NCBI GenBank assembly: GCA_048213135.1
Contig: PS015221.1
Location: forward strand, 22,782 to 66,016
Length of the DNA stretch: 43,235 nucleotides
Direction of reading: 5' to 3'
From: Reclinomonas americana ATCC 50394
Lineage: Eukaryota
Part shown: positions 1 through 40,879 of the stretch, in pieces
Layout: every line of letters starts with the position of its first letter
How positions within the stretch are numbered: position 1 is the stretch's first letter
The notes under the pieces: model-generated
What the model saw: only the letters and a program-made list of their open reading frames with translations
Databases searched by the model: none
What the model was told of the DNA's origin: nothing
Translations under genes and position numbers: made by a program

Positions 1-3000
1 TGATACGTGTGTGCGTTTTGTGCGACCTTACACTGCCGTGCTCACTCGCGAGGTTGCTCGTTGCACGCAGTACTCATCGCCGTTCACGCAAGTGGCGAAT
101 CTGTCCATCGATTTTCTGGCTGCAGTCTTTCCGCAGCTGCGGCCGAATGCGCAGATGAATCTGCTGACGTTTGTGTGCCGCGATCTCAAGGTCTCCGTCA
201 GTCACCCTGCTGCCATCACACCGTCTGCATCCTCACCTCTCCACATTACTGTAGGGGGCGTGGAAGAAATCTGCTGGGCGTGCACACATGATTGCACTGA
301 ATTGCCTGTCTCTGATGTGGAAACTGATGGCCAACTTTGCGGTGCGGCACGCTGTCGGTGCTTACGAAGTGTGGCCATTCGAGGACATTCGCAGCACTCT
401 GCTTGGTGCGACCGCTCGACTCGACTGCCATTCGTGCGTGCAATCGTTTCTCACCTTTCCCCTTACTTTCAGAGTATTGTGCGCATCCGCGGTGCGAGAT
501 CTACGCCCTGGCTGCCGAGTGCATTGGGTCGTTTGCCGGCGTGTGTGAGCGCGTGAGTCCACCAACGCTGCAGCTGCTGTTGCATACTGTCGTGCAGGAG
601 GTGAGCGCGTGTGTTTTGCGGTTGATTCTGTCTGGGTTTGCATTTTTCATTGAATCTCTGGCCGCAGTGTGAAAACCCCAACCCGGTGGTTCAAGCATCT
701 GTGTGCCTGTCAGTGTCGGCCATGATTCGGTGAGATCGTGTCGTTTTTCTTCGCGAGCGCGTGCGTTGCTGTTTCTCATGCAGTTCTTCGGAGCATACTG
801 CAGACACTTGTCGGTGGCACAGGCAGAGGAGTTCCAGCCGTTGTTTGTCTCCACGTTGCTGTCCAAAGTGCGCAGTATCGAGGTCGACGTGCANNNNNNN
901 NNNNNNNNNNNNNNNNNNNNNNNNNNNNNNNNNNNNNNNNNNNNNNNNNNNNNNNNNNNNNNNNNNNNNNNNNNNNNNNNNNNNNNNNNNNNNNNNNNNN
1001 NNNNNNNNNNNNNNNNNNNNNNNNNNNNNNNNNNNNNNNNNNNNNNNNNNNNNNNNNNNNNNNNNNNNNNNNNNNNNNNNNNNNNNNNNNNNNNNNNNNN
1101 NNNNNNNNNNNNNNNNNNNNNNNNNNNNNNNNNNNNNNNNNNNNNNNNNNNNNNNNNNNNNNNNNNNNNNNNNNNNNNNNNNNNNNNNNNNNNNNNNNNN
1201 NNNNNNNNNNNNNNNNNNNNNNNNNNNNNNNNNNNNNNNNNNNNNNNNNNNNNNNNNNNNNNNNNNNNNNNNNNNNNNNNNNNNNNNNNNNNNNNNNNNN
1301 NNNNNNNNNNNNNNNNNNNNNNNNNNNNNNNNNNNNNNNNNNNNNNNNNNNNNNNNNNNNNNNNNNNNNNNNNNNNNNNNNNNNNNNNNNNNNNNNNNNN
1401 NNNNNNNNNNNNNNNNNNNNNNNNNNNNNNNNNNNNNNNNNNNNNNNNNNNNNNNNNNNNNNNNNNNNNNNNNNNNNNNNNNNNNNNNNNNNNNNNNNNN
1501 NNNNNNNNNNNNNTGGAGCTGTATGCCACGCAGATTCTCACCACCTTGCGTCAGGTTTTTGGCCTCTGTGTTCCCCCGTGGAGTGCATTGTATACATGCA
1601 TTGCAAATCACCCACTCGACTGTCACGCAGCATTTGGTGTGTACCGATCGGTCTGCCGATGTGGATTTCGACGGATCTCTGGGAGGTGTGGTGGACACAA
1701 AGCACCTGGTGTCGCCGGAGGACCTGTCCTGCGTGACGCGAGCGCTGTGTGCATTCCTTGATTGTTGCTGGTCCATCATTGACGATCAAGCCATGGCGCG
1801 CGTCATCTCCCTGCTCGTGGAGCAGTACAAGTTGTCTGAGGGTGCGTTCGTGAAATGTGGTTCGTACTGTTGACTGTTGTTGCACTCACCTACGATCGCG
1901 GTCAATTGGCGCAGCGTACGTGGTGACCTATGGCGAGGAGAGTGCCTTGCGCATCAAGGTGGAGTTGTTGCAGGCCATGGCGCACGTGTTCTCCACGGGT
2001 TTCCGTGGCCACGGACCAGCGTCGGGAGTGCCGACCACCTTTTTTGAGTTGAGCCTGGTCCAGAGTTGAAGGCGTGTGACTTGTTACTGTCGCTGGCTGA
2101 CCTTGCGTCGTCGTTCGCTCTCAGGTGTGACATGATGGTGCTGGTGGTATACGATTGGTTCCACATTGTCAGCGACTTTGCCTATTTGAAGACAAAGCGA
2201 ATGGTTTGTTGGCACTTGTGGTGCAACGCCTCTCGCGCTGGTGCGTTGTTCACTTGAAGCGCACCGACAACAGCATCACTCGTTCGATCGGGACTTGACG
2301 GGCGATCACTGGCAACTGCACCTCACGAATCGCGTTCTCGGGTTCCGAGCACTTCCGCTCATGGAAGGCAAGATGCTCAGTGTGCTGGAGGCGCTTTTCC
2401 GTCTGGCTTCTTTTGATGGAGGCAAGCACTGGAGAACGGCGTTTGAGGTGAGAGGAATGTCGGTGTGTGTGTGAGAGAGGCCACAAATTATGGTGTGGTA
2501 ACACTTGCGAATAGAGCGAGGCATCGTCCACATGGTCGTTTGCCGTCTCGGCGTTTTGGTTCTGCGTCAACATTTTTGTCAGTGCGGATCGCGAGGCATT
2601 CTCCGGTGTCATGAACAACGCGCTCTCGGCATTGGTGGCCGCTCCCTTTACGTGGCTCACACAAGTATGTATCGTGTTCTTTGGTCGCATCAGAGGAACA
2701 TGTTCTCATGAGTGCTTGCTGTTGTGCCAGGACGGAAGTGCGAGTCTTGTCATGGCGTTCTTGGAGAGTCACTTGGATGTGCAGGAAAATGTTGTGTCCC
2801 TTGCTCATTCACATATCTTGTCACCGTCGGCAGTGGTCTCACCGCGCTGGTTCGTCTGCAGCCGGCCACTGTGGTACAGTTCTTGTCGGCAGTGAGCAGT
2901 GGTCTGTCGACCACTCCGGCCAGCGTACGGCCACTCCTGCTGTGCGTACAGGCATGCACACGTCTCTGTGGAAACAGTTTGCCGACTGAACTATTGTGTG

Positions 3001-4271
3001 CTAGTGACTCGGTGATTGCTTCTGTGAATCGTCTGCATCAGCAGTTGCTGGCACTGCATGCTCCTTCGTTGCTTGTCGATGGAGCCGATGCACCAAGCAT
3101 GCGTTGCGTAACGGGCCTTGTTCTCTCTGAATGAAGCGCGGTGCATGCTCCTCATTGCTCGATGCAGAGCTCGACGGTGCCGTGCTGCGAGACTTGCTTG
3201 CCTCCGAGTTGGCGTTTGTCGGTGCCGCTGTCGATCCTGCCGTCTCGGTGGCACTCGAGCAGGGTACCAATGCAGCCGCTTGGCGCTCGTTTGTGGCACA
3301 GTGTGCCATTTGCAGCCAGCGAGTGGTGCGGCTGCTGACTGGTGGCGTGGTGGTGCCGGTGGAACTGCCAGGCATGTGCACTGTGGCTGTTGTTGTTGTT
3401 GTGCTGTATTGTTCACAGTCGTTGTGTTGGTAGCCGATGCAATGTCGCTTGCGTCTCGGGAAATGTCGGCCATTCTGGCCTGCACTGGAGCTGCCTCCGA
3501 TCGTCTGGCGCTGTCCCTCTTGAGGGACGTGCAAGAGTTTCGTGCCTGCGTGGCCACATGGTTGAGAAGAGAACATGTCCATCTCATTTTGAAGTGTATG
3601 CGACAGCTCGGCCAGCACACCGGCGCTGCTGGACTGCGTGGTGGCGGGATTCATGTCATTACCGGAGCACTCGGTCCGGCATCAACAATTCCTCGCAGTG
3701 TTGCAACAGCAGCTGCAACACCCGACGGCGGTATGTGTTTGACTGTGTCTCTGTTCTGTGTCACGTGTCTCACCGCTGTTTTTCGGCGCAGAATTCGTCG
3801 CGGTTGTTGCAGGCAGCACTGCGACAACTTGGACGAGTTGCATTGCCGTCTCCTTTACATATTATCTCGTTGCCATGGACTGCTCACTTTTCCCACCCCC
3901 GACAGCTTGGTGGTGAATCGGGCAACACCATGCGGCAATATGTGGCCGCTGTGGCGCACGTCACGCTGGCCCAGTTGGAAGGAGCGACACCCGGCGTTCT
4001 GGAACAGTGCGCCCTGGAACGAGTGCAGTCTCTCATGCTGCTCTACGCGCTCTCAGCTGCTGTTGATTCGGCGCCCGATACGGATCAAAGTTGCGCCACG
4101 ACAAGCGCCTCTCTCATCTCGATCTCCTTTTCTCGCTGACCAAATGACTGTGAACACCAGAAGCACAATGTCTCGATGTGGTCGTGGCCGCCTTGCTCGT
4201 GTTCCTTCGCCTGTTGCGTGCGCCACAGTGACACACTCGCCCAGTGACCCAGTTCTCACGTGCTCTTGCCG
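1..4271 (+). CDS. Large multi-exon helical (ARM/HEAT-like) protein of unknown identity; partial, interrupted by gap 894-1513, runs into gap 4272-5151
   Basis: Successive Leu/Ala-rich helical exons on + separated by short GT-AG introns (e.g. GAG|gtgagc at 601, GAG|gtgaga at 2447). No family-diagnostic motif recognised. Confidence 0.6.
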
Positions 4272-5152
4272 NNNNNNNNNNNNNNNNNNNNNNNNNNNNN
4301 NNNNNNNNNNNNNNNNNNNNNNNNNNNNNNNNNNNNNNNNNNNNNNNNNNNNNNNNNNNNNNNNNNNNNNNNNNNNNNNNNNNNNNNNNNNNNNNNNNNN
4401 NNNNNNNNNNNNNNNNNNNNNNNNNNNNNNNNNNNNNNNNNNNNNNNNNNNNNNNNNNNNNNNNNNNNNNNNNNNNNNNNNNNNNNNNNNNNNNNNNNNN
4501 NNNNNNNNNNNNNNNNNNNNNNNNNNNNNNNNNNNNNNNNNNNNNNNNNNNNNNNNNNNNNNNNNNNNNNNNNNNNNNNNNNNNNNNNNNNNNNNNNNNN
4601 NNNNNNNNNNNNNNNNNNNNNNNNNNNNNNNNNNNNNNNNNNNNNNNNNNNNNNNNNNNNNNNNNNNNNNNNNNNNNNNNNNNNNNNNNNNNNNNNNNNN
4701 NNNNNNNNNNNNNNNNNNNNNNNNNNNNNNNNNNNNNNNNNNNNNNNNNNNNNNNNNNNNNNNNNNNNNNNNNNNNNNNNNNNNNNNNNNNNNNNNNNNN
4801 NNNNNNNNNNNNNNNNNNNNNNNNNNNNNNNNNNNNNNNNNNNNNNNNNNNNNNNNNNNNNNNNNNNNNNNNNNNNNNNNNNNNNNNNNNNNNNNNNNNN
4901 NNNNNNNNNNNNNNNNNNNNNNNNNNNNNNNNNNNNNNNNNNNNNNNNNNNNNNNNNNNNNNNNNNNNNNNNNNNNNNNNNNNNNNNNNNNNNNNNNNNN
5001 NNNNNNNNNNNNNNNNNNNNNNNNNNNNNNNNNNNNNNNNNNNNNNNNNNNNNNNNNNNNNNNNNNNNNNNNNNNNNNNNNNNNNNNNNNNNNNNNNNNN
5101 NNNNNNNNNNNNNNNNNNNNNNNNNNNNNNNNNNNNNNNNNNNNNNNNNNNC

Positions 5153-6080: not shown

Positions 6081-8287
6081 TTAGAGAGCGGATGAGTTGG
6101 TCGAGGCTCCGGCACCGGAATTCGGCGACAACGGAGCAGGAGCAGGAGCTGGGACAGGAGCCGCCGCGGCCGGTGGTGGCGGGCACGGAGCCGTGGGCAT
6201 GGCGGAGCATTCATCAAAAAGATCCTTGAACAGAGCAGTTGACAGGTCTGCAGAAAGCGCATCCGAGTGAATACACAAACTCACACAGCACAGACAGCAA
6301 TGATTGCGACGCAACAGCGTTCGCCAAAGCTGGGCTCCACCACCTGACGAGATACGCAAGTGATGAGGAGGGGGACGCCAACGAAACCGACTTTGCTGGC
6401 ATGACAGACGCAACGACAATCAGCTTGCCCTCGTTCTCCGGCTGCTTTGCCAGCTCCACTGCGCTGTGAATCTGTGCACAAGGTGAGGGGGGGGGGAAAG
6501 AACACAACTGCCCTGCACGCTGCTGACACACACCGCTGCACCGCTGGAAATGCCACAGAAGATGCCTTCCTCCTTGGGCAGGCGGCGCGCCATCGTCAGA
6601 GCTGTGTGCCAGCTGCGTGAGCACACACACAAAACATGCAAAAGTGCGCTAAACTCACCGGTTTGTGACGACACCTGGATGATTCCGTCGACCACCTCGC
6701 TGTCATAGATCTGCACTGCCAGTGAGCACAGACATTGTCGATTCCTGTCGCCGCGACACGCACACGCAACATCTGGCTTGAATCCGGCGCCAATGCCCTG
6801 GATCATGTGCGGACCGGGCTTGTTGCCACTGAGAACAGCCGACTCGACGGGTTCCACGGCGAACGCCTGCATGCCGACGCGCGTGCATCAGTGAGGAGGA
6901 GATGTGCACACATCACGGTCAATTATGGTGGCTCACACGCCAGCACCTTCACACTCGGCTTCTGCTCCTTCAGGAACTTGACAGCACCGGAGATGGTGCC
7001 GCCTGACACAAGATTGCACATGAGTGAGCCAGCAGAGCAGGGGGCGAAACTCGTCGAATTCACACACCAGTGCCCACACCACCGACGAAAATGTCGACTT
7101 CGCCCGCGGTGTCGCGCCAGATTTCCGGGCCAGTGCTGCGTGTATGTCTGGTGTGAGCCTTCTCTTCTATTCGTTCCACACCCCCGCAGCACAAGGAACG
7201 CAACGTGTTGTAGTGGATCGCAGGATTGGCGGGGTTGCCAAACTGGTTGGGCATCCACGAGTTCGGGATCTCCTCCAACATCTGCCTGGCCTTGCGCTGC
7301 AGCACGAGGGAGTGGGGGGCAAGAGTGAGGCAACAGATACAGGCGGGGACATGTCGGGTAAACTCAACTGCAGCTCCGGGAATGCCAAACTCGCGCGGCG
7401 TCAGCACCAACTCGGCACCAAACGCACGCAGCAACACACGGCGCTCCATCGAGAAGCTATCCGGCATCACTGTGTTGCGTGGGAAAACGAAAAAAAGTGT
7501 GAGCAGACCGAACACACAGCACAGCATACAAGAATGAAAAGAGGCGGCCTCACCGAGGATGGCCTTGTAGCCCTTGACGGCGGCGGCAAAGGCCAGCGCA
7601 ATGCCAGTGTTGCTGCGCAGAAGAGGGAAACGAAAAGAACAAGCAAGCGAGAAAAGTCAGCGGTGAATAACGCTGCAAACTCGAGTGAGAGATACAGCTT
7701 GCCGCCGCTGTGCGCACCCTGATGTGGGTTCGATAATGGTCGTGATGCCCGGTGTAATGATGCCGCGCTCCTCGGCGTCATCCAGCATCGCCTTGCCAAT
7801 GCGGTCCTTCACCGAGCCGCAAGGCTGCGCGCGCGCGTGCGAGGAGAGGGCGTGAGTGCGACATGTCGGTCCACCATTGTCGAGACACACACACACACAC
7901 ACACAGACACACCTCTTGCGCCTCGAGCTTGACGGCGACGCGAGCGACGCAGCCCTCGGTCACGCGGTTGAGGTACACCATGGGTGTGCCTGTCGTGCAT
8001 TCGCGTGAGCACACGCAATCAGACGACCACACACTCTGTCTCTCACGCACGCACCACCGACGAGGTCGAGCATCGTCGCGGCGATTCGGTTGGTGGATCC
8101 TGCAGCTGCGTGCGTGCATGCATGTATGCGCGAGTGCGAGTGAGTGAGTGAATGATGACACACACACAATGCTCCGATGCATCAGTCGTCGCTTCTCGTT
8201 GCAATGCAGTGCTCTCTCTCTCTCTGTCAGTCGACTGTGAAACACAGTGTGTGCAAGTGTCTCTGATGTGCACTCACCAGATGCCAT
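6081..8287 (-). CDS. cysK: Cysteine synthase / O-acetylserine (thiol)-lyase, CysK-type, 15 exons
   Basis: Spliced motifs [23 protein letters not shown] (PLP lysine), [76 protein letters not shown] at 8287, TAA at 6081-6083. Confidence 0.96.
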
Positions 8288-8494: not shown

Positions 8495-9670
8495 TTACCA
8501 GGCTGACTTGTTGTCGGTCGCGCCATGGCCAGCCTCGACATCCTTTGCCCGTCCCGACGGGGTGTAGTTGGCGGCGGAGGGACTCACCGCCCGGCGAGCG
8601 GCGGCGCCATCGCGGAAGAAGAAGGACAGGATGAGCGTCACAAACACGAGCCATGTGCCGACCCTGCATGCGCAGCGTGTGAGCACGGAGGGGAGCACGC
8701 CACACGCGAGTGCGCATGCAGCAGTTCACGTACCAGAAGATGATGTAGCTCCAGTCCCATTTCTGCAATCGGAAAGAGGCGCTGCGAGTGAGAAGGAACA
8801 CGACACCAGGTGCACTACACATGCATCCCTGCATTCGACGCAACTGCCTTGCCGTTCACTCCGTACAGCGGGTCGCACGGTCCGAGCGTGTTCTGGTTGG
8901 TGTAGTACGCGACGGCGGCGAGGCACAGCTGCAGCAGAAGAAAAATGCATGAGCACAGCGATCACACACAAAGGTACAGGGAAACCAGCATCGCACGAAC
9001 CCCCCACGAGATGAAGGAAATGACCTGCAATGACAAACACGCAACACGATGTGAGACGACACGGCGACACATCGACAGTTTTCTGTTGGACGCACCGCGC
9101 ACACCCACTTGATCGCGGTGAGTGGTCGAATCACGTAGATCAGAAGGAAGACAAAGAGGAGGCAGGCCATGCCCGTCCCACTGGCACCGACACCGAGCGT
9201 CTACGCAGTCGCGTTGAGTGGTGGTGATCAGTCAGACAGACAACAAAGTATCGAAAAACACACGCAACGACGCGATTGATCTGCGCGTCACTCGTGCTCC
9301 CCGTGTAGCATGCCGGTCCATTCACAGGGTCGTCGTAGTTCGTGCACAGCCACCTGCGTGCACACGCCAGTGTCACACAAAAGCGGAAAGTCACAAGGTT
9401 CATGATTGGCTGTTGCAGCAAACAAACCCATTGCGGAGGCCGACTTCGAAATAGTATGCCGGCCTGCAGTCTTGTTTGCTGTGTTGTCGGAGGCACACGG
9501 AGAGAGGGAGGAGAGTGACAGCGTGAGTTTTCAGACGGAGAGCTGCGAAACCGTACACACACACACACACGCAACATCCAGTGCCACGACTTGAGGCCGA
9601 GGACGCAGCAAGCGATCGCTCCACCGACCAGTACCAGACACACAATGGCGAGGGCGCGACCAGTGGTCAT
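8495..9670 (-). CDS. Small tetraspan membrane protein, claudin/PMP22-superfamily-like
   Basis: Four hydrophobic segments across about 7 exons. The first loop has W..W...GL..GWLC...C, WDWSY precedes TM4, and there is a short polar tail. A possible 5'-UTR intron lies at about 9673-9749. Confidence 0.6.
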
Positions 9671-13288: not shown

Positions 13289-13326
13289 GTAATAAATGTA
13301 CCAGTAGTCCATGTATCCCGCGGACT

Positions 13327-15841: not shown

Positions 15842-16108
15842 CGATTCTCTCAGCTCGTGGCAACAACAAAGTCAGTGTCCTGTCACTCTCCTCTTCTTTT
15901 TGTTGNNNNNNNNNNNNNNNNNNNNNNNNNNNNNNNNNNNNNNNNNNNNNNNNNNNNNNNNNNNNNNNNNNNNNNNNNNNNNNNNNNNNNNNNNNNNNNN
16001 NNNNNNNNNNNNNNNNNNNNNNNNNNNNNNNNNNNNNNNNNNNNNNNNNNNNNNNNNNNNNNNNNNNNNNNNNNNNNNNNNNNNNNNNNNNNNNNNNNNN
16101 NNNNNNNN

Positions 16109-16358
16109 CACGCACACACAATCAATCACAATGTACATGTGCGCGTAGTGAGGCAGCAAAGGGACGCACCTCGGGTGTCGGACCCTTCAGTGAGGTCATC
16201 AAACCTGTGCATGTATGAGCAGAAGAGAGAGTGAGAAGAAGGGGGAGTGTGGTGTCGGGCACCTCACACTCACCATAGCCAATGGCGATCGGAGTGAAAA
16301 AGTAAAAGAGGCCGACGCCGATCTTGCCGCTGCGTGTGCGCACAGTGAAGCGACCCAT
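16109..16358 (-). CDS. Small single-pass membrane protein, 5' part only (continues into gap)
   Basis: MGRFTVRTRSGKIGVGLFYFFTPIAIGYG|LMTSLKGPTPE| with canonical GTGAGT/GTGCGT donors. Identity is not established. Confidence 0.4.
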
Positions 16359-16515
16359 GAGCGTTGGCAGCGATAGCTCCGTGCACCACACGATCGATTC
16401 CACGCGGAGATTGATTGATTGAGAGCTCGAGTGGGACAACTTTGTGATAACCATTCCCTCGCTTTTACTCTCACATCGCTTATTGGCATTCCCTGTGTAT
16501 GCCGTGGTGTGCCAT

Positions 16516-16964: not shown

Positions 16965-17226
16965 NNNNNNNNNNNNNNNNNNNNNNNNNNNNNNNNNNNN
17001 NNNNNNNNNNNNNNNNNNNNNNNNNNNNNNNNNNNNNNNNNNNNNNNNNNNNNNNNNNNNNNNNNNNNNNNNNNNNNNNNNNNNNNNNNNNNNNNNNNNN
17101 NNNNNNNNNNNNNNNNNNNNNNNNNNNNNNNNNNNNNNNNNNNNNNNNNNNNNNNNNNNNNNNNNNNNNNNNNNNNNNNNNNNNNNNNNNNNNNNNNNNN
17201 NNNNNNNNNNNNNNNNNNNNNNNNNN

Positions 17227-27867: not shown

Positions 27868-28359
27868 CGACACCGCACCTCGACTCAAGTCGCTGCTGGC
27901 ACACAGCAAACACACACACACACACACCAAGAAACGAAACAAGCGTGAGTTTTAAGCGACAGTGGCCTCTGATAGGTCAGAATATTGCGACAAGTAGTGT
28001 GGCCGTTGCAAGCAATACTGTGTGCCCACAGTGTCAATTCGTGCGTGCAAGAGTGCGTGCGCGTGTGTGTGTCTGCGCTCCACGTCTGCGTGCTCTGCCT
28101 CTCTACCACACGCGCACTCGTCCTGTCTCACACTGCCTGTGGCTCTGGTGGAGAAAAAATGTGCCTTCTGTGTCAAATACAGCATACCTTTTCTCGATGT
28201 TTTCAAGAAAACGAAGTGGACAGTTTGCGGTGTTTGTCATCTGTCCACGTTACATAAACCGCGGGCTTTGTGTAAACAGGCGACACCATGTGTTCGTCCC
28301 CTCCGTTGCCCTCGATCGCCCCACCGACGCCATCTTTCACTCACCTCTTCCGAGCGCAG

Positions 28360-31300
28360 ATGACGACGACGGCGGCGACGACGATGATGACTGCGGCAGC
28401 AGCAGCCAGGGGTCGATTGTGGTGATCCGTGCCGCAGCCCCTGCCACCGCCACCCACCATTCCTCCGGCATTCGCCGTGCCAGTGTCATGGCGTACTACG
28501 ACGAGGACTGGTGGGACGACGACGACGACGATGGAGCGGCGGCGGCGGCGGCGGCGGCAGCGGAAGCCGCGGAGTCCGCCAGGTTACAGGAGGAGGCGGA
28601 GGCGGCGGCGCGACGTGTGTGCGCCGATGTNNNNNNNNNNNNNNNNNNNNNNNNAGGAAGTTTGCCGACCGCACGAGTGTAATGTGCACAGTATCGCAAG
28701 GTGTGTGACGACGCGGGCAAGGCCAGCAAGGTCGGCGATCTGCACAGTGTGTTGCAGCAGGTGGACGACACGAATGAGGCGGCTGCTGCTGCCGCCGCCG
28801 CTGCCACGGCAGCAGCTGAGGCGGCCGAGGCAGAGCAAGAACGGAGATTCGCATTATCGTCACCGACTGCGTCTGGCACGACCACCGCCGCCCCTCGCAA
28901 TCGGTCAGTGGCACCGGCGCGCAAGTCACTGCCTACCTCGCTTCGCGGTCAGAGTGGGAGTGTCTTGGCCGACAATGATGTACCGGAGAACTCGATCGCC
29001 GTCCACGATACGGACGGCGTCGGCAGCCGACCACCGGCCGCCCAGCGTTCATCTCCACATGCCGTGTCGGCTGCGACTGCCGGCTCCTACTCTTCTCCCC
29101 AGCCACACGACACGTACACTGAGGTGCCACCGCGCCACACGTGGGACAGTCGATACGGTACGTTGCGCAGTGGAGCGGCGCTTCTCTCATTTGCAGTGAT
29201 ATTCATTGTGGCTTGGCGGCAGACACGAGCGATGCGCCCGACCCGCGGCAACTGCAGTACGACATGGAGCGTGGCGGCCGCGGTGGTGGTGGTGGCAGTC
29301 CCGGCGGTGTTGGAGAGGGGGCGATGCTTGCTGCAGGAGCAGCAGCGGCTGCCCCGTACGGTGGCTCCCGACATGCCAGTGCACCCGACACGGCGCACTG
29401 GGGAGCGGCCGTGGATCAGGAGGCACAGTTCNNNNNNNNNNNNNNNNNNNNNNNNNNNNNNNNNNNNNNNNNNNNNNNNNNNNNNNNNNNNNNNNNNNNN
29501 NNNNNNNNNNNNNNNNNNNNNNNNNNNNNNNNNNNNNNNNNNNNNNNNNNNNNNNNNNNNNNNNNNNNNNNNNNNNNNNNNNNNNNNNNNNNNNNNNNNN
29601 NNNNNNNNNNNNNNNNNNNNNNNNNNNNNNNNNNNNNNNNNNNNNNNNNNNNNNNNNNNNNNNNNNNNNNNNNNNNNNNNNNNNNNNNNNNNNNNNNNNN
29701 NNNNNNNNNNNNNNNNNNNNNNNNNNNNNNNNNNNNNNNNNNNNNNNNNNNNNNNNNNNNNNNNNNNNNNNNNNNNNNNNNNNNNNNNNNNNNNNNNNNN
29801 NNNNNNNNNNNNNNNNNNNNNNNNNNNNNNNNNNNNNNNNNNNNNNNNNNNNNNNNNNNNNNNNNNNNNNNNNNNNNNNNNNNNNNNNNNNNNNNNNNNN
29901 NNNNNNNNNNNNNNNNNNNNNNNNNNNNNNNNNNNNNNNNNNNNNNNNNNNNNNNNNNNNNNNNNNNNNNNNNNNNNNNNNNNNNNNNNNNNNNNNNNNN
30001 NNNNNNNNNNNNNNNNNNNNNNNNNNNNNNNNNNNNNNNNNNNNNNNNNNNNNNNNNNNNNNNNNNNNNNNNNNNNNNNNNNNNNNNNNNNNNNNNNNNN
30101 NNNNNNNNNNNNNNNNNNNNNNNNNNNNNNNNNNNNNNNNNNNNNNNNNNNNNNNNNNNNNNNNNNNNNNNNNNNNNNNNNNNNNNNNNNNNNNNNNNNN
30201 NNNNNNNNNNNNNNNNNNNNNNNNNNNNNNNNNNNNNNNNNNNNNNNNNNNNNNNNNNNNNNNNNNNNNNNNNNNNNNNNNNNNNNNNNNNNNNNNNNNN
30301 NNNNNNNNNNNNNNNNNNNNNNNNNNNNNNNNNNNNNNNNNNNNGGAACTGATCGAGGAGGATGTGGAGCAGGTGCGTGACAGCTGCCGGCACCTTCGTT
30401 TTTTTTGTCTCGATACAAGCTCATTGATTGGCCGCCACCGCAGTTGGCCAACGCCCCCCTGTGGGAGGACAAGCAGTCGCGACAGCGACCACTGCCGAAG
30501 CGCCCGTTGCGTCCATGATCTTCCTTCCCACCTGTCGCGCACTAGTTGGCGACTGATCCAGATTCACACAGACCAACGCGCTTTGCACTGTTTGAACGCC
30601 TGAGCAAGCGAGCTCAGGAAACGGTTTCGTATTCTTCGCGTGCGATACAGTCTGTTCGTCGACTCACTCCCTCTCTCTCCACCAACACAGCTGAAGCGCA
30701 TCGAGGGCAAGAAAGAGGAACTTCGACTGGAACGGGAGCGCTCGTTGCTGCTGACGATGAACGCTGCCACGGCTGCGGCTACGCCCCTGTTGGATGCATC
30801 GCCGCCGTCGGTTCTCGCACGACAGATTGTCACGCCTCCGGGACGGGTTCGTGCATCAGGAGTGTTTGTATCGCCTTTTCATTCGCACCTGTCTCACCAC
30901 CCCACGCCGCACACAGCCCTTCAGTCGAAGTGCTCCACCCCTGCAGCAGCAACCTCAGCAACCGCAGCGCAGCCCGTCGCCGCTGGCGCAAAGCGTGCAA
31001 GCCGCAGTGGCATTCCACAGCGCCCCGCATTCGTGGTCCCTCCCGCAGCGAACTGCCGGTCCGCTGCACGCTTCGGACAGGCTGCCGACCACCGTGATGA
31101 CGGCGCTGGCTCGCGTGGCCGGTCACCGTGAGCACCGCAGTATGTCTGCGCCGCCACCTCCCACCGATTCTGTCGGTACTGCCTCGCCACCGCCATTCTC
31201 CTCGCCATCCGACGGTAGCACGGCTGCTACTGGCGGTGGCGGTGGCGCTGGTGGCAGTCCACTCCTCTCACCCGCCAAGCGCACCCGTCGACAGAGCCAC

Positions 31301-31531
31301 GGTGCTTCGTCCATGCGCTCGCCGCCGTCACCGCTGCTGCCAGTGGCGCGTGCATCGACGCCAGCCGCCGGTGCCATGAGCAGTGCGTGGCGGACGCCGC
31401 CGTCTTCAGCTGCCGGCGGTGGTCAGGCGCTGCCGAGTGTTCCACTTCGTCGAGACGTGGTTACGGCGGCCGGCAACCGGCTGCAGAGCACGACCGACGG
31501 ATCTGGGCGCCGTGCTGCAACACCGTGGTGA
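28360..31531 (+). CDS. Unknown low-complexity (Asp/Ala/Ser/Pro-rich) protein with short coiled-coil; interrupted by two gaps
   Basis: Long open frames with poly-Asp/poly-Ala, spliced exons ELIEEDVEQ|...ERLSKRAQET|LKRIEGKKEELRLERER, and TGA at 31529-31531. The start is uncertain (ATG 28488 or upstream). Confidence 0.5.
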
Positions 31532-31555
31532 GGAAAAAATGTAATGTTGTTACAA

Positions 31556-32276
31556 TTACTGTTGTTGCTGTTGTTGGTGACCATGCACGCGACGCCATGC
31601 ACGGCGCCACCAAGACACGGGCTGCTGCGCGCGACGATAGGCCTCCATGTCGCCCCAAAAGCCCGTCAACTTCTTGCGCGCCCGATTCTCCGCGGCTGTG
31701 TACGCTTTCTGCACCGACGGCGGCAGGCACGTCCACTCGTCGCCCGTCGCCGTTCGAGCCACGCCCATTCGCAGCAGATCGAGCGCCACATCACCGCGCC
31801 CGAAAACCTGCACCCCATATCTCTCTTGCTTAAGCAACACCACGAAGAAGGCACGAGAAAGAAAGAGCAGACCTTGCGATACAACAAGCGACCAATCACT
31901 GGTCCATCGTCCACTGTTTCCGTCGTGGGACCACGCATCACTTGCAACCAGGTCTCGGATCGGCGAGCGCTCAGTCGATGCACCGCCAGCTGCACCTCAC
32001 TTGTCCGCATCGCTCTCATCGCCGGCGGCATCTCCTCCACCGACGACACTCCAGCCAGCCGAACCACCATCGCCTCCTCGCCCGTCGACACAGCACCCTG
32101 CCATTGCCGCCAAAAGCGAGTCCACGCCGGTGGAGTGTGCACCACTCGACACACAAACTCGCGAGTGGGCGACACGCCAACATATTCGCACGGAATCGTC
32201 AGTCGCTGCGCGTAGTCCGCGGCGGCAAAGTCCGCGGCGCTCTTGAGTTGCACAAACTGCGAGCGCGGGCGATGAG

Positions 32277-32319
<43 letters not shown>

Positions 32320-32536
32320 GTACGCGAGTGTTGGCGAGCAGAAAAGAGACCTGTCGTCGCAGTTGTCGTCGATACAAGATTGCCAGTCCGACGGTGAGTG
32401 CGCCCGTCGACAGCCATCGCACAGCGCGCTGGTGGTTGTCTGCGAGAGCGACAAAGAATCACTCAAAGAAGGTACCGACACACGTGCTTGCTGGCGTGAC
32501 GCAACCGAGCCACACTGTCAACGCGTCCACGACCAT
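31556..32536 (-). CDS. C3orf33-like protein (membrane anchor + degenerate SNase/thermonuclease fold)
   Basis: MVVDALTVWL|DNHQRAVRWLSTGALTVGLAILYRR resembles, from memory, the human C3orf33 N-terminus (WADDHLRLVRNISTG). Downstream motifs are VVHTPP, VVRLAGV, DVALDLLRMGVA and AAENRARKKLTGFW. Confidence 0.8.
32280..32317. repeat. Intronic (CA)n microsatellite; similar tracts at about 7884, 9556 and 35395
   Basis: Directly visible. Confidence 0.9.
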
Positions 32537-32579
32537 TCGAGCAGAGAGGACAGAGACGAACAACAGGACCGTACGGAGA
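32537..32579. promoter_or_regulatory. 43-bp spacer between divergent start codons (putative bidirectional promoter)
   Basis: Lies between ATG 32536 (-) and ATG 32580 (+). Confidence 0.55.
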
Positions 32580-34427
32580 ATGCAGCGGCTTGTGGCGAGT
32601 GCGCTGTGTCGCCCTCTGTCGCTCACACGTCGCGTCTTCTCCTCTGCTGCTGGTCAGTGCTTGCGTGTGTGTGTGATATGACACGCTGCAGCTGACTGAT
32701 TGCTGCTGTCAGTGGAGAGCGATGCATCGTGGGAGATTCGGCCGCAGCTCGATCTCAAGAGTCTGTGTGAACGCGCCGAGCAGATGCAGCAGAATGCTCG
32801 CAATCGAGCAGTGCAGGTCGATGTCGCAGCTGTGGTTGGTGGGTGCTGCAATGCATGTGCATCCTCCGCGCATGCAGGCGACTGACTGATGAATGATCGC
32901 GCCCAGGCATGTACGATGAGTGGCGCACGCTGCAGAAGAAGCTGGATGCGTGGCGACATGAACGCAAGCTGGTGCGTACCACTGATGACTTTGTGGTTTC
33001 CCGTGGCGTGCGACTGAGCATGTGTCGCCCAGAATGCAAATGCTGTGCATGCATGCAAGGAGGCGAGTGAACGGCAGGCATTGGTGGCCGCCGGAAAGCA
33101 GCTGAAGCAGTCGACTAGCGAGGCTGAGGCTGCTGCGGAGCTGGTACGTGTGCAGTCGCTGTCGCAGCCGGGGAGGGCTTCGCTGAGTTTTGTTGCAGCT
33201 GTACGGGCGAATGATGGAGGCTGCGCTGAGAGTGCCGAATGACACGCACCCCGACAGTCCGATTGGTAGTGAGGACCAGGCGCGACAGGTGAAGCTGCAT
33301 GGAGGTGAGCTTCGAAGGGAAAGAGGGGCATCGATGCTGCTGCAGACTCACATGTGGGTACGCAGTGCCACCTGTGTTCGCGCAAGGACCACCGCTGGAT
33401 CACGTAAAGATAGGCACCGCGTGTGACCTGTTCGACTTTACGCAGGCCAGTCAATGCACTGGCTCGCGATTCTATTACTTGAAGAACGAAGCCGCGATGC
33501 TTGAATTCGCATTGGTGCAGTACGCGCTCGCCAAGTTGCGTCAATGAGCGCGCTCATGATGATGTGCTGCGCGCTGCTGCTCATCCGCGTGTCGGCAGAC
33601 TGATACCACGAGGCTTCACTCCAATCATCACGCCGGACTTGGCGCGCCACCAGGTGGTGTCCGCCTGTGGTTTCCAACCACGTGGTGCCGCCTCGCAAGT
33701 GTACTCGATCCGCGACAGCGATTTGTGTCTGGTCGGCACGTCGGAGATCACACTGGCCGGTCTCCTGGCCGGTCGTCTGCTGGACGCCTCGGAGCTGCCG
33801 CTGCGCTTTGTCGGCGTATCGCACTGCTTCCGACAAGAGACTGGCACTGGTGGCGCTCAAGTGCGCGGCCTCTACCGTGTGCACCAGTTCACCAAAGTCG
33901 AAATGTTCGCCGTCTGTGCGCCCGCTCAGAGCGACGCGCTCCTCGAGGAGATCCGGTCGACGCAGGAGTCGATTTTTGCCGATCTCGGACTGCATTTCCG
34001 CACGCTGGACATGCCAACGGAAGAACTCGGTGCGTCGGCGTACCGCAAATACGACGTGGAAGCGTGGATGCCGGGGCGCGGCGGCTTTGGCGAGGTCAGC
34101 AGCAGCTCAAACTGCACCGATTTCCAGGCTCGGCGCCTGGCCATTCGTATTCGCGATGGCAAGAACAATACGTATGCCCACACACTGAACGGAACGGCTG
34201 TGGCTGTGCCACGCACCATTGTGGCACTGCTGGAGACACATCAGGATCCCGACGGTTCCGGATGTGTCAAGGTGTGGTGGGCGCGCGCAGGCCCGAAAGT
34301 CGATTGTTGCTCACTGGCCGGTGCACCACAGATTCCGGACTCGCTGCTGCCCTTCATGGCCGTGAAGCCGGCGGATGGCGTGATCCGGCCGCGGGTGTCG
34401 TCAGCTGAGGTTGCCAACAAAAAGTAG
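32580..34427 (+). CDS. SARS2: Seryl-tRNA synthetase, mitochondrial type
   Basis: Targeting peptide MQRLVASALCRPLSLTRRVFSS, followed by RVPNDTHP, GSRFYYLKN, LVGTSEI, CFRQETG, GLYRVHQFTKVEMF, ELGASAYRKYDVEAWMP, EVSSSSNCTDFQARRL and HTLNGTAVAVPR. Confidence 0.96.
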
Positions 34428-34494
34428 GTTGTCGAGACAGCTTGCATAGAGTGAATATTATTGTGCACAACATTCGTCAGCGTTCCATCGCAGC

Positions 34495-34563
34495 GAGAGA
34501 GGGAAGAGATAGAGAGAGAAGAGAGAGAGAGAGAGAGAGAAGAGAGAGAAGAGAGAGAGAGAG
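34495..34563. repeat. GA-rich tract between the SerRS stop and the Pol X start
   Basis: Directly visible, immediately 5' of ATG 34569. Confidence 0.9.
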
Positions 34564-34568
34564 GAACA

Positions 34569-35392
34569 ATGAGTGGAGGAATGTCATCGCTTCCAGAGAC
34601 AAGTGAGGAATGTCGAGAATCTTTGAGTTCTTCCTCTCTCGGTCGGCGACGCGCATTCCATGTGGCACCCAGTGCCTTTGCGCCCGTGTCCAAGCGTCGT
34701 CGCCTGCGACACGATGAAGGTGCGTTTCCCTCTAGTTGGTGGTGGTCTGTCTCGTTGATTCTGGAACTGACATGCACGCTTCTCAATCAAGGTGTCGCAA
34801 CACATGGTCAGCCTCTGCTTCCGGTACAGCGTGAGTTGTACGATGCCGACGAGCTCAGTGTCACCTTTCGACTCGAGGCCGTGCAACTCTGCACATCACC
34901 GCCCTTCCGTAGGTGAGCAATCGGCACCAATCGAGAGGCATCTGCAGAGTGACTGATGTGTCGTCGACTGCCAGGTTCTTGGAGCGGCTGGTCGTGGCAC
35001 GCAACAAAGCCTCCACCGTCCCTTCTAGCCGCCAAGTGGTCGATCTGACGCATATCGACGACGACGACGACGACGACGATCAGCGACGTGGGAAGAAACT
35101 GGAGGTGCCCGAGGTCGCCGCGATGGTACTGGATCGACCAGAGGTCATGTTTGCGGGCGCTCGTGTGGCCATCATTCTCGGTGAGAAGATGCGAGCGATC
35201 AAGGCGGGCATGGTGCGCGACGCGATCGTCAAACGCGGCGGATCGGTGGTCGATAAAGACGACACTGTGGACAGTGAGACCACCGATGTGATTAGCGGCG
35301 TTGAGGATCCTGCCCGGCTGCTCCGGCGGTTTGGGTGGGTCGACGTACCGGTGAGGCTGTTAATGCGCGTGCATACGTGTTTCGTGTCTTTG

Positions 35393-35427
<35 letters not shown>

Positions 35428-38036
35428 CACTGTTGGAGGAGCAGCCAGGGATCAACATTAGGCCTGCCGACTGGGTGGCCGACAGCATTCGCCGTGGTAG
35501 CGCTGCACCCGACACGCTGAATGCGGTGGTGGAGGCCGGCGCCCGACAGGCTGCGTACGCTGCTTCGTCGGACGCTCGAACCAGCGTGGGGCGTGACATG
35601 ACACTGTCGCACACTCCCCACGCGGGCGCCGTGACTCTGGCGGAGCGGCGACGTCGAGCGGTGCGTGCGCTCTCACCACATGTCGATCGTTTCTCCCCGT
35701 GCACGTTGTGACTGTTACATCCTCGCAGAAGAACCATCAGCGTCGCCGGCGGCTCAGCAGAGACTCGCAAGGAGTCTTCGAGGAGACTGCGTACGAGAGC
35801 CCTGACGAAGAGTCGATCAGGCAGGCCCGGTCGAGGACGAGCAGGGCCGTACTACCGACGCTGGACGAGTGGTTGGCATCGTGCACGTCGCCGGAAACTT
35901 CAACATCGACAACGACGACTACAACCACCAGCGCGACCTCGGATCCGCCACTTCCAGCTGCGGGTGACAGTGGCAGCATGCTGCGCGACCCCATCCAAAC
36001 GCTGCTGAGTTTGCGTAGCCGACTGGGCGAAGCCGATGTGCTGTCGGAGGAGGATCGGCGCGAGTTGGAGCGTGAGGCACGTCCCACGATTCTTCTTCTT
36101 CTTATCCCGACTCGCTGCGTGATGTGTTCTTCTCTCGACTCATGTGAGGTGTTCTTGGCAGTTCTCTGGTGTGCGCTCCTCACTCGCATCCGAGTTGCGC
36201 GCCGGCCCGCGGTCGGAGAGAATGCTCGAGTCATTCGAGAATCAGCGGCGTGCAACCGATCCGGTGGTACGCAGCGTTGGATGAGAGTGCATCCGTTCAT
36301 CTCGAACTCTCTCCCTCACCTTGCACCGCACAGTGTGCTTCCAATCGACCACTCATCCAAGAGCTGCTCGACTACGCCGATGCCAATGCAATGGTTTCAT
36401 GATGGCTGTACACGTCCGAGTGCTTGAGTTGGCCTGTTCATGTGTGCCCCTCGATTGCAGGCTGGTGACGAGTGGCGCGTGCTGTCGTACCGACGCGCTG
36501 CGGCAACCATTGCGTCGCTGCCACATGAGGTATGCACGAACTAGCTCAGAGAGTGGCGAGACCACAAGCTGACTGCGCCTCGCAGGTGACACGGGCGTCA
36601 CAGTTAAAGGGCATTCCGGGATTCGGACCGCGCACGCTGGACCGCATTGACCAGTTTCTCAAGGTGTGCACAGGAGATGGCTGTCGTGTGTGTGTGTTCA
36701 ATCACCTACGATGCTGCTGCTCTTCGTGGACAGATCGGACACATTCCGCGCAAGGAGGCTCTTGTGTCGCAAGAACACAATCAAGTGGTCGATCTCTTTC
36801 GCGGCATCTGGGGCGTCGGCTTCGAGACGGCTCGTGCCTGGTACCAGGCCGGATACCGGACACTGGACGACGTGCGGGAGCGTGCCAGCCTCACACCAGC
36901 ACAGCTCGTCTCTCTGCGCTACTGTGAGGATGCCAAGCAGCGGATTCCGCGTGATGAGGTGCGCCAGATTGAACAAATTGTACGCGAGGAGGCGCAGAAG
37001 CTGTATCCGGAGCTTGTCGTGTGCGCCTGCGGCTCCTACCGCCGTGGCTCGGTGCGTGCTTACTCACTCTCTGGAGTGCACGAAGCTGCCTCGCTGACGC
37101 TCCCTCGCGCAGTCGTCGTCGAGTGACATTGATATGATTGTGTCGTTCGATCCGGCGGCACGCGACCCCACACCAGTCTATCCGCCAACACTCGGCATTC
37201 TGCGGCGTCTCGTCGACGCACTGCACGCACGAGGCCTCTTGACGGATGACTTGAGCATGAGCCACGGACGTGAAGAGGTTGTGATGCAGCTCTGACAACG
37301 CGCCTCCGGTTTTCCCCTTTTGCTTACGTGTTCGAGGCAGGGTGAAAGTGAGACTTATCTCGGATGGTGCAAACTGCCGGAGGGTGGCGAGTGGCACCGT
37401 CGGATCGATATCAAAGGTGAGCTGTTGTTATGTGTAGATTGAAGACACTGATGGATATCTCACCACCGGCCCAGTGTATCCGCCCGACCGCCTCCCCTTT
37501 GCCTTGTTGTACTTTACGGGGTCAGGCATGTTCAACCGGCTGATGCGACTGTGTGCGTATGCTTGTTGTATATGCATGTCGTCCATTGGCAGCAACTCAC
37601 TGTCCTCCCTGCAGACTGTCACGTGAATGTGCGTTCTCGAGTTGTCCTCTTGACTCGATTTTTGATTAATCTCACCTTTGATTCGGGAGACAGGGCTGGC
37701 ACTTGAACGACAAGTGCGTGTGTGTGCTCTTTACCCCCTGCTTCATCCCTGTTCTGTCTCATCATTCGTACTCTCAGGGGTCTTGTTCGAGTGCGTGATG
37801 ATGCTATGTGCTGCCACCACTGAAATCGAATCAAGATAACACACATTTGCTGCGCAGCGCTACAAGGACTCGAATGGCGACAAGGTGTTTGACGGCCCCA
37901 AGGTGCCATGCCGCACCGAGGAAGAGATCTTTCAGTTACGCGCAATCACGCATGCTGCTGGCAGGCACGTGCAGCTGACTGTTATTGCAGTGCCCTTGGC
38001 TTCGAGTACCGACCACCAGAACAGCGAACATTGTGA
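34569..38036 (+). CDS. Family X DNA polymerase with N-terminal BRCT domain (Pol lambda-like)
   Basis: BRCT (IVKRGGSVV...ADWVADSI), 8-kDa domain (GDEWRVLSYRRAA, IPGFGPR), IWGVG HhH, GSYRRG..SDID, RRIDIK, LLYFTGS..FNR.MR and TEEEIFHALGFEYRPPEQR. An NLS-like KRRR lies near the N-terminus. Confidence 0.93.
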
Positions 38037-38049
38037 GTCGACTGATTTA

Positions 38050-40191
38050 TTAGGAGCTTGTCGGTGCCCAGGCGCCCGGATAGTACCTGAGCAAGAGAGG
38101 TGAGACGGGCCAGTCACGACCAGCAGGGAAAGTGAATGAATGACACGTACTTGGCCAGTACGAATCCGCCCGCCGCGCCTGTGCGATCGCACATTATTGT
38201 AAGTGATCTGGCAGTGATCAAGATCAGTGGTGGAGGAAAAGGTAAACGTACCGACAATTAGGCCTGCGTTTAGGGCAAACGACTGCATATAGGATGAGAA
38301 ATCAGCGAGGCCAGGCGCGCGAGACAGGCAACGAAAGCGCACCATAAAAGTACCCGCCAGTTCCTGGAGTTCTCTGCGCTGCGTTGGCGAAATATTGCGC
38401 TCCTTCAGCACGTCATCATTGACCGCACCTGCGCCGAACAGTGAGAAAGGGAAGTGGTGCTGTGAGGAGAGTAGGGCGAGATCGCAACTGCTGCCATAAA
38501 TCATCGACAGCGCTGCGCGTACGAGGAGTGAGTGCGGATAATCAAGAAGTTTGCAAGGCGCAGCACGTTGTGCGCAACTGCCAAAGAGGCCATTCGTGAA
38601 ACCGAGGGCCACAATAATGACGTAGATGCCTGTCACGGGTAATGCAAGCCACCATGAGCACCACCAACAACAACAACAACAACAGAGAGGAAAAAAGGAA
38701 AGCACAACGCACCAGCTAGCGAATCGATCCAGTACGGTTTCACCATCATCAGCGTCGGTACAATGAGCACCACACGAGCGACCGACGAGAACATGATCCA
38801 CGAGCGAGGAACCAGCAGCACCCACTTATTGATAAGGCGCCCGAGAAAATCGGCAGCATTGAACACGCACTGCACGGCGTGGAGCGTCAGTCAATACAAT
38901 CAGCGAGCGAGTAAATGCGCTGACAGACAGCACACGCAACAATGGTGACCACCGGAAAGATACTTGGTGGGAAATGCCAGCCATTCGGTAGTGGGATTTC
39001 TGACAAGAAGCCGGGGAACACGAGCAACGACACAGCATAGACGGCGAACACCGAGATCGCTTCGGGAAGACAAAACTTGGCCGCGCGCCACACTCGACGC
39101 ATACCAGGCAGTTTCTGCACCAGCAATGAGAAACCAACGCGGCTGCGTGTAGAAAGTCAAACGTTGCGCAACAGGCGGTGCTGCTGCCTCGGCACCCAGC
39201 AGCTTCTTGGTCTCTGTGTTCTGATCACTCCGCAGTGCCGATTCAGCGTCGCCATTTGCCTCCTCTCGATTCACCGAGGCGGCGACCACGCGCTGTTGTC
39301 GCCGATGCTTCCTCACAACCTGTAATTGAGGAGGTTGGCAACCTAGTCGGTGAATGCACGGCGAATCAGCAGGAGTGGCGAACGCAACGAAATAGTGGAA
39401 AAAGTCGGAGCGGCGGATGAAAGCGTAGCCGACGACACACAGCAGCAGCACGCCGGCCGACATGGAGAAGAAGATGACGGCACCCGTGTCCACGTCTGCA
39501 CGAAACTCACGAGCGTGAGGCGCAAACGCGTGCACACAACCCACCACCGACCGACACCAGCGCCATGTACCTTTCATCGGCAACAGACACACAATGAGAA
39601 GGCGCAGAACCGAGATCACCACCGACGAGCAGCCGATGCCGAGCAGAGTCGACTGCACATACGCCTCCGGGAACAGCGTGGCCAGTGCAATCACACTGCT
39701 GTCCAGTACCGACGCGGTGAGACCTGTGCGAAACCATGCATGTGAGCACGCTCCGCTCAACGACACAGCTCGTCGAAGAATATCCGCGCACCTGCGAGGC
39801 CGACCAGCGCCACAAACATGCCATACGCCACATCCGGCGACGAGATCAGGTGGCCCACCGCCGGTGCCAGTCCCACAATCACCCCATCGATCACCAGCGA
39901 CACGAGAATACGCACCGAGAATGGCACCTTGCGCAGCCACAGAAACACAGGCAAGAACGCTGCATAGAGGTCAGCACACAGAGCAAGGAGGGAAGCATGC
40001 CTACACGCACTCACCAACAAAGGATGTCAAGTTGTAGACCATGGACACGGTGGCATTGATGCCGAGGGCATGCGTCGGGTACTGTGAGGAGAAATAGTCT
40101 GCATGCAGGGAGTAGGGAGTTAGTGACAGTCACAGTGACACACGCATAGAGCCAGCTTACCGACAGCAGACACAAAGCTGCACACGGAAGA

Positions 40192-40285
<94 letters not shown>

Positions 40286-40455
40286 GCGGCGACGACCGAC
40301 GTAGTGTGGTAGGAGTACTACTACTACCGTACCGTACGTAGTAGTGTGTGTTGTGTGTGTGTGTGTGGTAGTGGTAGTGGTNNNNNNNNNNNNNNNNNNN
40401 NGTACGTACGTACGTACGTAGTACGTAGTAGTAGTAGTAGTAGTAGTCGTAGTAG

Positions 40456-40554
<99 letters not shown>

Positions 40555-40879
40555 GCGCCACCAAGATTCGTGAGGGATCATCACACCTGTAGAATGCTGT
40601 GTGTGTTCGTGTGTGAGTGAGTGACTGTGAGTGTGGAGAAGGGGGAGAAGGCGGGTGAGCGCGCAACGAAGCAAGTAGCCGGCGCCAAGCAGCAAGAAGA
40701 GGCACCACACGGCAGAGAACTGTGTGTGCACACATTGAGCATTCATGCACGACTGCTGCACCTGCGTGTGTGTGTCACAACGCAACGCGATCGCGTGGAA
40801 TAACATCGCGCTCTGTGTCAATCGCCGTTGTGTCGTCACCCGGCTCGGCGATGATGAGAGAGCCGTACCGAGAGAGCAT
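38050..40879 (-). CDS. Equilibrative nucleoside transporter (ENT/SLC29 family), about 17 exons
   Basis: PRDR|FSAVWCLFLLLGAGYLLP|FYS|FVSAV|DYF, LFPEAYVQSTLLG, VSLLVFPG, VFNAADFLGR, LGFTNGLFG, ELAGTFM|SFALNAGLIVG. The last exon (to TAA at 38050) is inferred; an alternative stop lies at 38114. Confidence 0.92.
40196..40551. repeat. Compound microsatellite (GT)n(GA)n(TAG)n(GTAC)n within ENT intron 3, around a gap
   Basis: Directly visible. A (GT)n(GA)n block lies on both sides of gap 40382-40401. Confidence 0.95.

Follow-up and report, generated by a model that had tools for sequence, protein, structure and literature searches.

Introns in a 43,235-base stretch of nuclear DNA from Reclinomonas americana ATCC 50394 (contig PS015221.1, positions 22,782 to 66,016; hereafter the window) appear to use two classes of 5' splice site, the second of which carries G at intron position +6 instead of +5, an assignment supported by the reading frames and protein homology of the genes concerned. 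The original prediction, made from the DNA letters, had listed 29 donors of this second class, all beginning with GTT, and had described them as the ordinary donor motif moved one base deeper into the intron. That description is supported both by junctions fixed by homology and by the enrichment of G at +6 on the scale of the window. Compared with the ordinary donors (class 1), the GTT donors (class 2) have lost the G at the last exon position (-1) and prefer an exon that ends in CA, so that the two classes can be understood as one heptamer cut at two places. In the simplest description, G|GTGCGT (positions -1 to +6, the vertical line marking the cut) and |GTTGCGT (+1 to +7) would be a single motif, G[G/T]TGCGT, with the cut placed just ahead of the first GT it contains; the CAG|G of ordinary donors then corresponds to the CA|G of GTT donors. 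Pairing of U1 small nuclear RNA (snRNA) in a shifted register, possibly bulged in a few sites, is probably used for about one third of the introns in the window.

Splice junctions fixed by protein homology

The gene for cysteine synthase (~8000-6190, minus strand) was examined with a hidden Markov model (HMM) built from 99 of 120 retrieved homologues. Every in-frame, stop-free join at 12 exon-exon junctions was scored, with no dinucleotide required, which amounted to ~9,000 variants. At each of the 12 junctions, exactly one GT-AG pair fell in, or within ~1 bit of, the best class, and five of these 12 homology-defined introns start with GTTG[C/A]GT. The five class 2 introns, all on the minus strand, are 7297..7368 (GTTGAGT, 72 nt; the sole GT-AG pair in the top class, 102.5 bits), 7136..7204 (GTTGCGT, 69 nt; top score, 95.9), 6711..6770 (GTTGCGT, 60 nt; 54.6 vs 55.1 for the best of any cut, and the sole GT-AG pair of that length), 6344..6414 (GTTGCGT, 71 nt; top score, 23.0) and 6248..6315 (GTTGCGT, 68 nt; unique top score of 12.1, runner-up 7.2). 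The other seven introns found by the junction scan (6472..7912, minus strand) belong to class 1, with donors at 7912 (GTGTGT), 7717 (GTGCGC), 7553 (GTGAGG), 7067 (GTGTGT), 6946 (GTGCTG), 6658 (GTGAGT) and 6533 (GTGTGT), and all seven have G at -1. The intron 6867-6946 is a clean fit to neither class: its ordinary donor, which homology fixes as AAG|GTGCTGG, combines T at +5 with G at both +6 and +7.

The organellar-type seryl-tRNA synthetase (SerRS; ~32750-34260, plus strand) was scanned in the same way with an HMM built from 113 of 120 homologues. It holds a class 2 intron at 33535..33598 (plus strand; GTTGCGT, 64 nt), whose cut scores 177.0 vs 177.7 for the best of any cut and is the sole GT-AG pair in the top class. 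Two class 1 introns of the same gene (33144..33365, plus strand; donors 33144 GTACGT and 33305 GTGAGC) correspond to the best GY-AG pairs, and both have G at -1.

At the GTT sites of cysteine synthase, the sole in-frame rival is a cut 3 nt downstream that adds one valine. This rival would turn the class 2 introns into GC-AG introns divided as GTT|GCGT, an alternative that is in frame and for which the necessary GCGT is present at 20 of the 29 claimed sites. However, the GC cut scored lower at all five GTTGCG junctions scanned, reaching 89.5, 49.9, 20.2 and 5.6 bits at 7204, 6770, 6414 and 6315 (lower by 6.4, 4.7, 2.8 and 6.5 bits, respectively) and 172.7 in SerRS (lower by 4.3 bits); the equivalent GTT|GAGT cut at 7368 was 2.8 bits lower. 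A GC-AG cut is impossible at the nine claimed sites without GC at +4/+5, and it would account for neither the conserved GTT nor the preference for CA at the exon end. We consider this reading very improbable.

Two further class 2 introns lie in an XPR1-like gene of the SPX/EXS family (~10400-13460, plus strand) and are placed by comparison with human XPR1 (8x5b_F). At the intron 12465..12535 (plus strand; GTTTCGT, 71 nt), the sequences ...WDLK and MDWGL join without a gap at XPR1 K303/M304. Removal of the intron 12590..12670 (plus strand; GTTGAGA, 81 nt), which takes out 27 in-frame codons, joins ...LLRK to QLTFP, gap-free to XPR1 residues 318-326. The joined exons (...WDLK / MDWGL / QLTFP) align gap-free over both junctions with 8x5b_F residues 295-326. 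Positions 12536-12589 (plus strand) form an 18-codon (54-nt) micro-exon encoding the conserved MDWGL of the EXS domain, with GTT-type donors on either side.

Altogether, the homology test was applicable to eight of the 29 claimed sites, and all eight are supported as donors (7368, 7204, 6770, 6414, 6315, 33535, 12465 and 12590). Each of these eight introns has the GT and AG ends of a U2-type intron, and its removal restores both reading frame and homology. The homology-fixed introns are very short (57-105 nt), and their branch motif, CTCAC (variants CTGAC, TTCAC and CTCAT), is unusually regular, in these and in predicted introns across the window, standing roughly 10-35 nt upstream of a CAG acceptor. 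In cysteine synthase, a CTCAC-like branch motif followed by a CAG acceptor is present in 12/12 introns, in both donor classes, so that a branch motif shortly 5' of the acceptor, as expected of U2-type introns, is found in every one of them. U12-type introns were considered and rejected, the GTTGCGT donor and CTCAC-like branch being unlike the minor-intron consensus.

Donor-agnostic gene prediction

Window-scale evidence was obtained with a gene finder based on dynamic programming, which combined self-trained codon log-odds with a branch/acceptor score and accepted as donor simply GT, or GC with a penalty. The first stage contained no donor model; the second contained a weight matrix learned per base at +3, in which T was not singled out. 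Of the 99 introns returned by the first stage, 15 had the donor hexamer GTTGCG, more than any other hexamer, and 33 began with GTT. Among these GTT donors, G occupied +6 in 22 of 33, compared with 23% of the window's 958 GTT sites overall (p=1.3e-7), and +5 in 5 of 33; the non-GTT donors had G at +5 in 38/64. At window scale, then, GTT donors found without any donor model show the enrichment of G at +6 versus +5 by which the original prediction had proposed that it be judged.

The second stage returned 90 introns, comprising 34 GTT donors, 52 other GT donors and 4 GC donors. G stood at +6 in 30 of the 34 GTT donors and at -1 in eight (7/33 among the training donors), while in the 52 other GT donors it occupied +5 in 47 cases and -1 in 48. 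The class with T at +3 converged on GTT[G/T]CGT. Fifteen of the 29 claimed sites were recovered, nine of them outside the homology-tested set. The gene finder skipped the MDWGL micro-exon of the XPR1-like gene (12536-12589), which indicates that GTT-type donors and tiny exons defeat simple predictors.

The original prediction had also called the GTT donors a major class that the lineage uses routinely. The first part holds within the window, where they begin 5/12 cysteine-synthase introns and 33/99 and 34/90 of the introns in the two gene-finder stages. The second part extrapolates from 43 kb to a lineage.

Sequence features of the two donor classes

All 29 claimed positions read GTT with G at +6, as had been stated. 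By hexamer they divide into 20 GTTGCG, 4 GTTGAG, 2 GTTACG, 2 GTTTCG and 1 GTTGTG, with T at +7 in 20/29. The donors verified by homology differ by position: among the eight GTT donors, G is present at -1 in two, at +5 in none and at +6 in all, whereas all nine non-GTT donors have it at -1 and eight of them have it at +5 (GTT vs non-GTT, Fisher p=0.002 for G at -1, 0.0004 for G at +5 and 0.002 for G at +6).

The exon side of the junction differs as well. Across the 29 claimed sites, the exon ends with A at -1 in 14 (p=0.0008 vs base composition), with C at -2 in 13 and with G at -1 in 4, and the 20 GTTGCG sites have G at -1 just once (p=0.009). GTT donors accordingly prefer a CA| exon end, the arrangement expected if the +1 G takes the place of the -1 G and positions -1 and -2 act as -2 and -3. 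Ordinary donors keep a near-invariant G at -1 (9/9 verified, 48/52 predicted) and follow the working consensus G|GT[G/A]NGT, with +3 much more often G than A. Class 2 is the more uniform of the two, with C at +5 in 28/33 vs C at +4 in 17/32 for class 1.

Abundance and placement of the heptamer

The heptamer GTTGCGT occurs 30 times in the window, 6 times on the plus strand and 24 times on the minus strand, vs 10.44±3.34 in 100 dinucleotide-preserving shuffles, none of which reaches 30. Its one-base variants are present in 0-13 copies each. The excess over the shuffles is accounted for by splice sites, because ~21 of the 30 copies are located at claimed or predicted donors. Of the 29 scorable copies of GTTGCGT, 17 have a branch motif and YAG 30-135 nt downstream, vs 27% of all GT sites (p=0.0003); the corresponding figure for GTGCGT is 28/67. 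A local bridging statistic, combining coding potential on both sides with the acceptor score, places 12 of the 29 claimed sites in the top 10% of 5,491 GT sites (p=1e-5). This is a group-level result, the statistic being too weak for single sites, as homology-verified donors themselves rank just 0.72-0.99.

These counts bear on the reading that class 2 is an artefact, either because the heptamer arises by chance or from a repeat, such as an introner or a transposon end, or because the junctions are misplaced by one base on both sides, giving introns of the form TT...AGN. A one-base slide on both sides does give an equal protein score in 4/6 scanned junctions. Against it, the protein score drops with the slide at 6315 (7.2 vs 12.1) and at 7368 (100.6 vs 102.5), the conserved Met of MDWGL at 12536 would be substituted, and the introns would need non-GT, non-AG ends. 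Chance is opposed by the shuffles (0/100 reach 30 copies), and a common repeat origin by an all-vs-all blastn comparison of the interiors of 34 class 2 introns, which share just weak matches of 9-31 nt (best E 2e-4). With no body-wide similarity among these 34 interiors, an intron family derived from introners or transposons was rejected, and an artefact of either kind is exceedingly improbable.

A proposed shifted register of U1 pairing

The arrangement of the two classes suggests a mechanism in which U1 snRNA would pair with the same heptamer bases in both. In class 1, the heptamer occupies -1 to +6 (G|GTGCGT, G|GTGAGT) and would be cut after its first G. In class 2, where the second base of the heptamer is T, the first GT begins at heptamer base 1 and the cut would fall one base earlier. 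The class 2 duplex would then have the +1 G in place of the -1 G, a mismatched U at +2, and an exon-end CA that pairs like the CA of CAG. Later steps, involving U6, U5 and Prp8, would set the cut at the sole available GU. We infer both this U1 pairing register and the genome-wide extent of the pattern.

The textbook U1 5' end given in PMC4856993 served as the reference for counting possible base pairs. The mean over the 29 sites is 4.24 in the canonical register, 6.66 in the shifted register and 6.28 in a bulged register, compared with 7.27 canonical pairs for ordinary donors, with the caveat that the textbook U1 may differ from that of the host. On this count, again subject to the identity of the host U1, the claimed sites can form more pairs with U1 when shifted than in the canonical register (6.66 vs 4.24).

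The pair counts do not by themselves separate a shift from a bulge. In the latter case, the U1 register would be normal at the junction, one U of +2/+3 would bulge out, and +4 to +7 would pair in place of +3 to +6. This +2/+3 bulge is an established register in humans, as described in the available portion of PMC4856993. It predicts, however, that G at -1 should be favoured as it is in 48/52 ordinary donors, and this G is found in 4/29 claimed sites and in 1/20 GTTGCG sites, which show CA| instead. For the GTTGCGT majority, the shift is favoured over the bulge because the -1 G is lost. As a general account of class 2, the bulge is unlikely; the two verified donors 12465 (GTTTCGT) and 12590 (GTTGAGA), whose exons end in AAG|, may nonetheless use it.

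A second alternative is a dedicated partner, either another U1 complementary to GUUGCGU (for example, with A for C opposite +2) or a protein factor specific to class 2, with the general U1 serving class 1. The uniformity of class 2 (C at +5 in 28/33 vs C at +4 in 17/32) would be expected from such a tight, dedicated partner, and lineage-specific U1 5' ends that match atypical donors are described for Entamoeba and Mastigamoeba in the accessible part of bioRxiv 10.1101/2022.06.08.495308. A shifted duplex with a mismatch, dependent on strong remaining pairs, would predict the same uniformity just as well, and the observation fits both accounts. The window gave no hit in Rfam or tRNA scans and contains no snRNA gene. 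We regard a dedicated partner as distinctly unlikely.

Several points weigh against the shifted register as the common basis of class 2. Its advantage over the bulge in possible pairs is slight (6.66 vs 6.28), and the verified GTT donors that keep a -1 G (12465 and 12590) fit the bulge better. The textbook U1 may not apply, since U1 5' ends vary in some protists, according to the part of bioRxiv 10.1101/2022.06.08.495308 that was available. The gene finder is crude: its second stage was trained on its own output, was exact for just 7/12 homology-defined cysteine-synthase introns, and missed two verified GTT donors (6414 and 12590). Twelve of the 29 claimed sites have neither homology nor stage 2 support, although 0/29 were refuted, and the sample is one 43-kb window. 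With these points taken into account, the shifted register remains the probable explanation for the window.

A wider version of the shifted register can be put forward tentatively. The spliceosome of this organism may read one motif in two registers constitutively and genome-wide, at about one third of its introns, possibly with a retuned U1 5' end or an additional variant U1. Such retuning, with the host U1 5' end altered from the standard ACUUAC toward the complement of GUGCGU, is suggested by the donor sequences: class 2 is strict in its G at +4 and C at +5, and class 1 has the consensus GUGCGU. The altered U1 ends of Entamoeba and Mastigamoeba, as given in the accessible part of the preprint cited above, point the same way: U1 here may also be altered, and may complement GUGCGU.

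Further candidate donors and individual sites

The nine additional claimed donors recovered in stage 2 are all on the minus strand and constitute class 2 candidates. Four are in the gene for an ENT nucleoside transporter (~40100-38100, minus strand): 39293..39388 (GTTGCGT) and 39115..39172 (GTTGCGC), predicted in stage 2, and 38870..38940 (GTTGCGT) and 38513..38578 (GTTGCGC), predicted in both stages. The remaining five are 23295..23367 (GTTGCGT), 15743..15811 (GTTGCGT), 15654..15729 (GTTTCGT) and 14033..14098 (GTTGCGC), predicted in stage 2, and 8763..8844 (GTTGCGT), predicted in both stages. Beyond the claimed list, the gene finder predicts eight extra GTTGCG donors within 14489..42363 (42363, 41961, 23911, 21591, 19649, 15298 and 14703 on the minus strand; 30506 on the plus strand) and four extra GTTTCG donors (27093 and 19864 on the minus strand; 30624 and 35379 on the plus strand). 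Position 20956 (minus strand) also reads GTTGCG, and there the gene finder chose the neighbouring donors 20966 and then 20960.

Twelve claimed GTT donors carry the motif and were unrecovered in stage 2: 2048, 37278 and 37935 on the plus strand, and 5281, 9268, 9575, 16722, 16906, 32505, 38488, 40667 and 40786 on the minus strand. Pfam and PDB homology was unusable for these twelve sites, and 2048 was recovered in stage 1 alone. In the Pol-lambda-like polymerase gene (~36600-38030, plus strand), the donor at 37278 is doubtful: GTGATG at 37281, 3 nt downstream, is an equally compatible rival, and the 37278 cut leaves a spliced loop two residues longer than that of human Pol lambda. The C-terminal pieces around 37935 gave no usable match in homology searches. 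The exon that follows this donor presumably resembles the C-terminal end of family-X polymerases, and the reading frame is otherwise the sole support for the site.

For the ENT gene, to which seven of the claimed donors belong, a word-based protein search was empty and Pfam matches were weak. Pfam searches of nine further frames, from the genes holding 8844-9575, 14098-15811, 23367 and 32505, returned nothing. Long (CA/TG)n and (CT/GA)n microsatellites occupy introns and intergenic DNA (40014-40774, 32250-32330, 9800-10000 and many introns). One of them enters the N gap 40382-40401, and the upstream ENT exons, with donors 40667 and 40786, are not confidently joinable to the rest of the gene.

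Genomic context

The window is intron-rich, with a GC content of ~58% outside its seven N gaps. Its SerRS (33389-34259, plus strand) is of the bacterial/organellar type, and the nearest named eukaryotes are Heterolobosea sp. BB2 (EukProt transcriptome) and red algae, at ~60% identity. The SerRS exon matches 80 metagenome loci, all of them 54-65% identical and none close enough for intron comparison.

An open frame of 1037 codons (24838-27951, minus strand) scores higher for coding potential than the other five frames. The 1037-aa product matched no Pfam family and had 0 relatives among 1.84 billion protein representatives. It represents either a lineage-specific gene or a lineage that is essentially unsampled.

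Comparison with known systems

Searches of the openly searchable literature, supplements excluded, found no description of a GTTGCG-type donor consensus, though a genome paper could have noted it; the work on shifted registers found there concerned humans, tunicates, diplonemids and Entamoeba. As far as these searches reach, a shifted class at about one third of introns is previously undescribed. If the shifted reading holds genome-wide, where the cut falls would, as a regular part of gene expression, no longer be tied to where U1 binds. The organism would then offer a natural system for asking how the cut is fixed after U1 leaves, and how much play U6, U5 and Prp8 allow in the spacing of the GU and the paired +5/+6 bases. 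There is also a practical consequence: gene finders with a single donor matrix built on G at +5 would miss or misplace about one in three introns, and the predicted proteome would be badly corrupted.

Class 2 resembles U12-type introns in being a second, more uniform donor class beside a major one. Unlike U12-type introns, it shares its branch and acceptor signals with the class 1 introns of the genes in which it occurs.

The coexistence of two major donor classes in a genome is also known from animals and plants, where LUC7 proteins define two classes of 5' splice site (PMC11842720). The LUC7 classes differ by sequence features, and the abstract of that work mentions no displacement of the cut by one base against the motif.

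Among protists, the portion of bioRxiv 10.1101/2022.06.08.495308 available to us gives the Entamoeba donor as GUUUGU with a U1 end of ACAAAC, and the Mastigamoeba donor as GUACGU with ACGUAC. As in the window, these donor consensus sequences depart from GUAAGU, and Entamoeba likewise has U at +3. On the evidence of that portion, however, each of those organisms has one class, in the normal register and with G at +5, whereas here two registers coexist. Diplonemids have the donor (G)/GTATG (from the part of PMC12621601 available), and in tunicates a shifted register is merely raised as a possibility in the available part of PMC13326754.

The closest parallels come from human donors. In the available portion of PMC4856993, validated non-canonical registers together make up 1.5% of 201,541 human donors, and the +2/+3 bulge accounts for 68 predicted and 54 curated sites. 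The class 2 donors share with this bulge register that one of the two Us after the G would be unpaired and that the +6 G would pair with C4 of U1; they differ in that the bulge, as described there, predicts a retained -1 G, which most sites here lack. In the human shifted-register 5' splice sites (credited in the same source to Roca and Krainer 2009), all U1 pairs move one base while the cut stays at the GU. Here too, there is a GU with an extra U, a motif one base deeper and a G at +6. Non-canonical U1 registers at single human sites matter for the interpretation of disease mutations. The human shifted-register sites are, on that source's account, individual oddities, whereas the shifted motif in Reclinomonas americana, known from sequence, has the core GCGU and begins about one third of the introns in the window.

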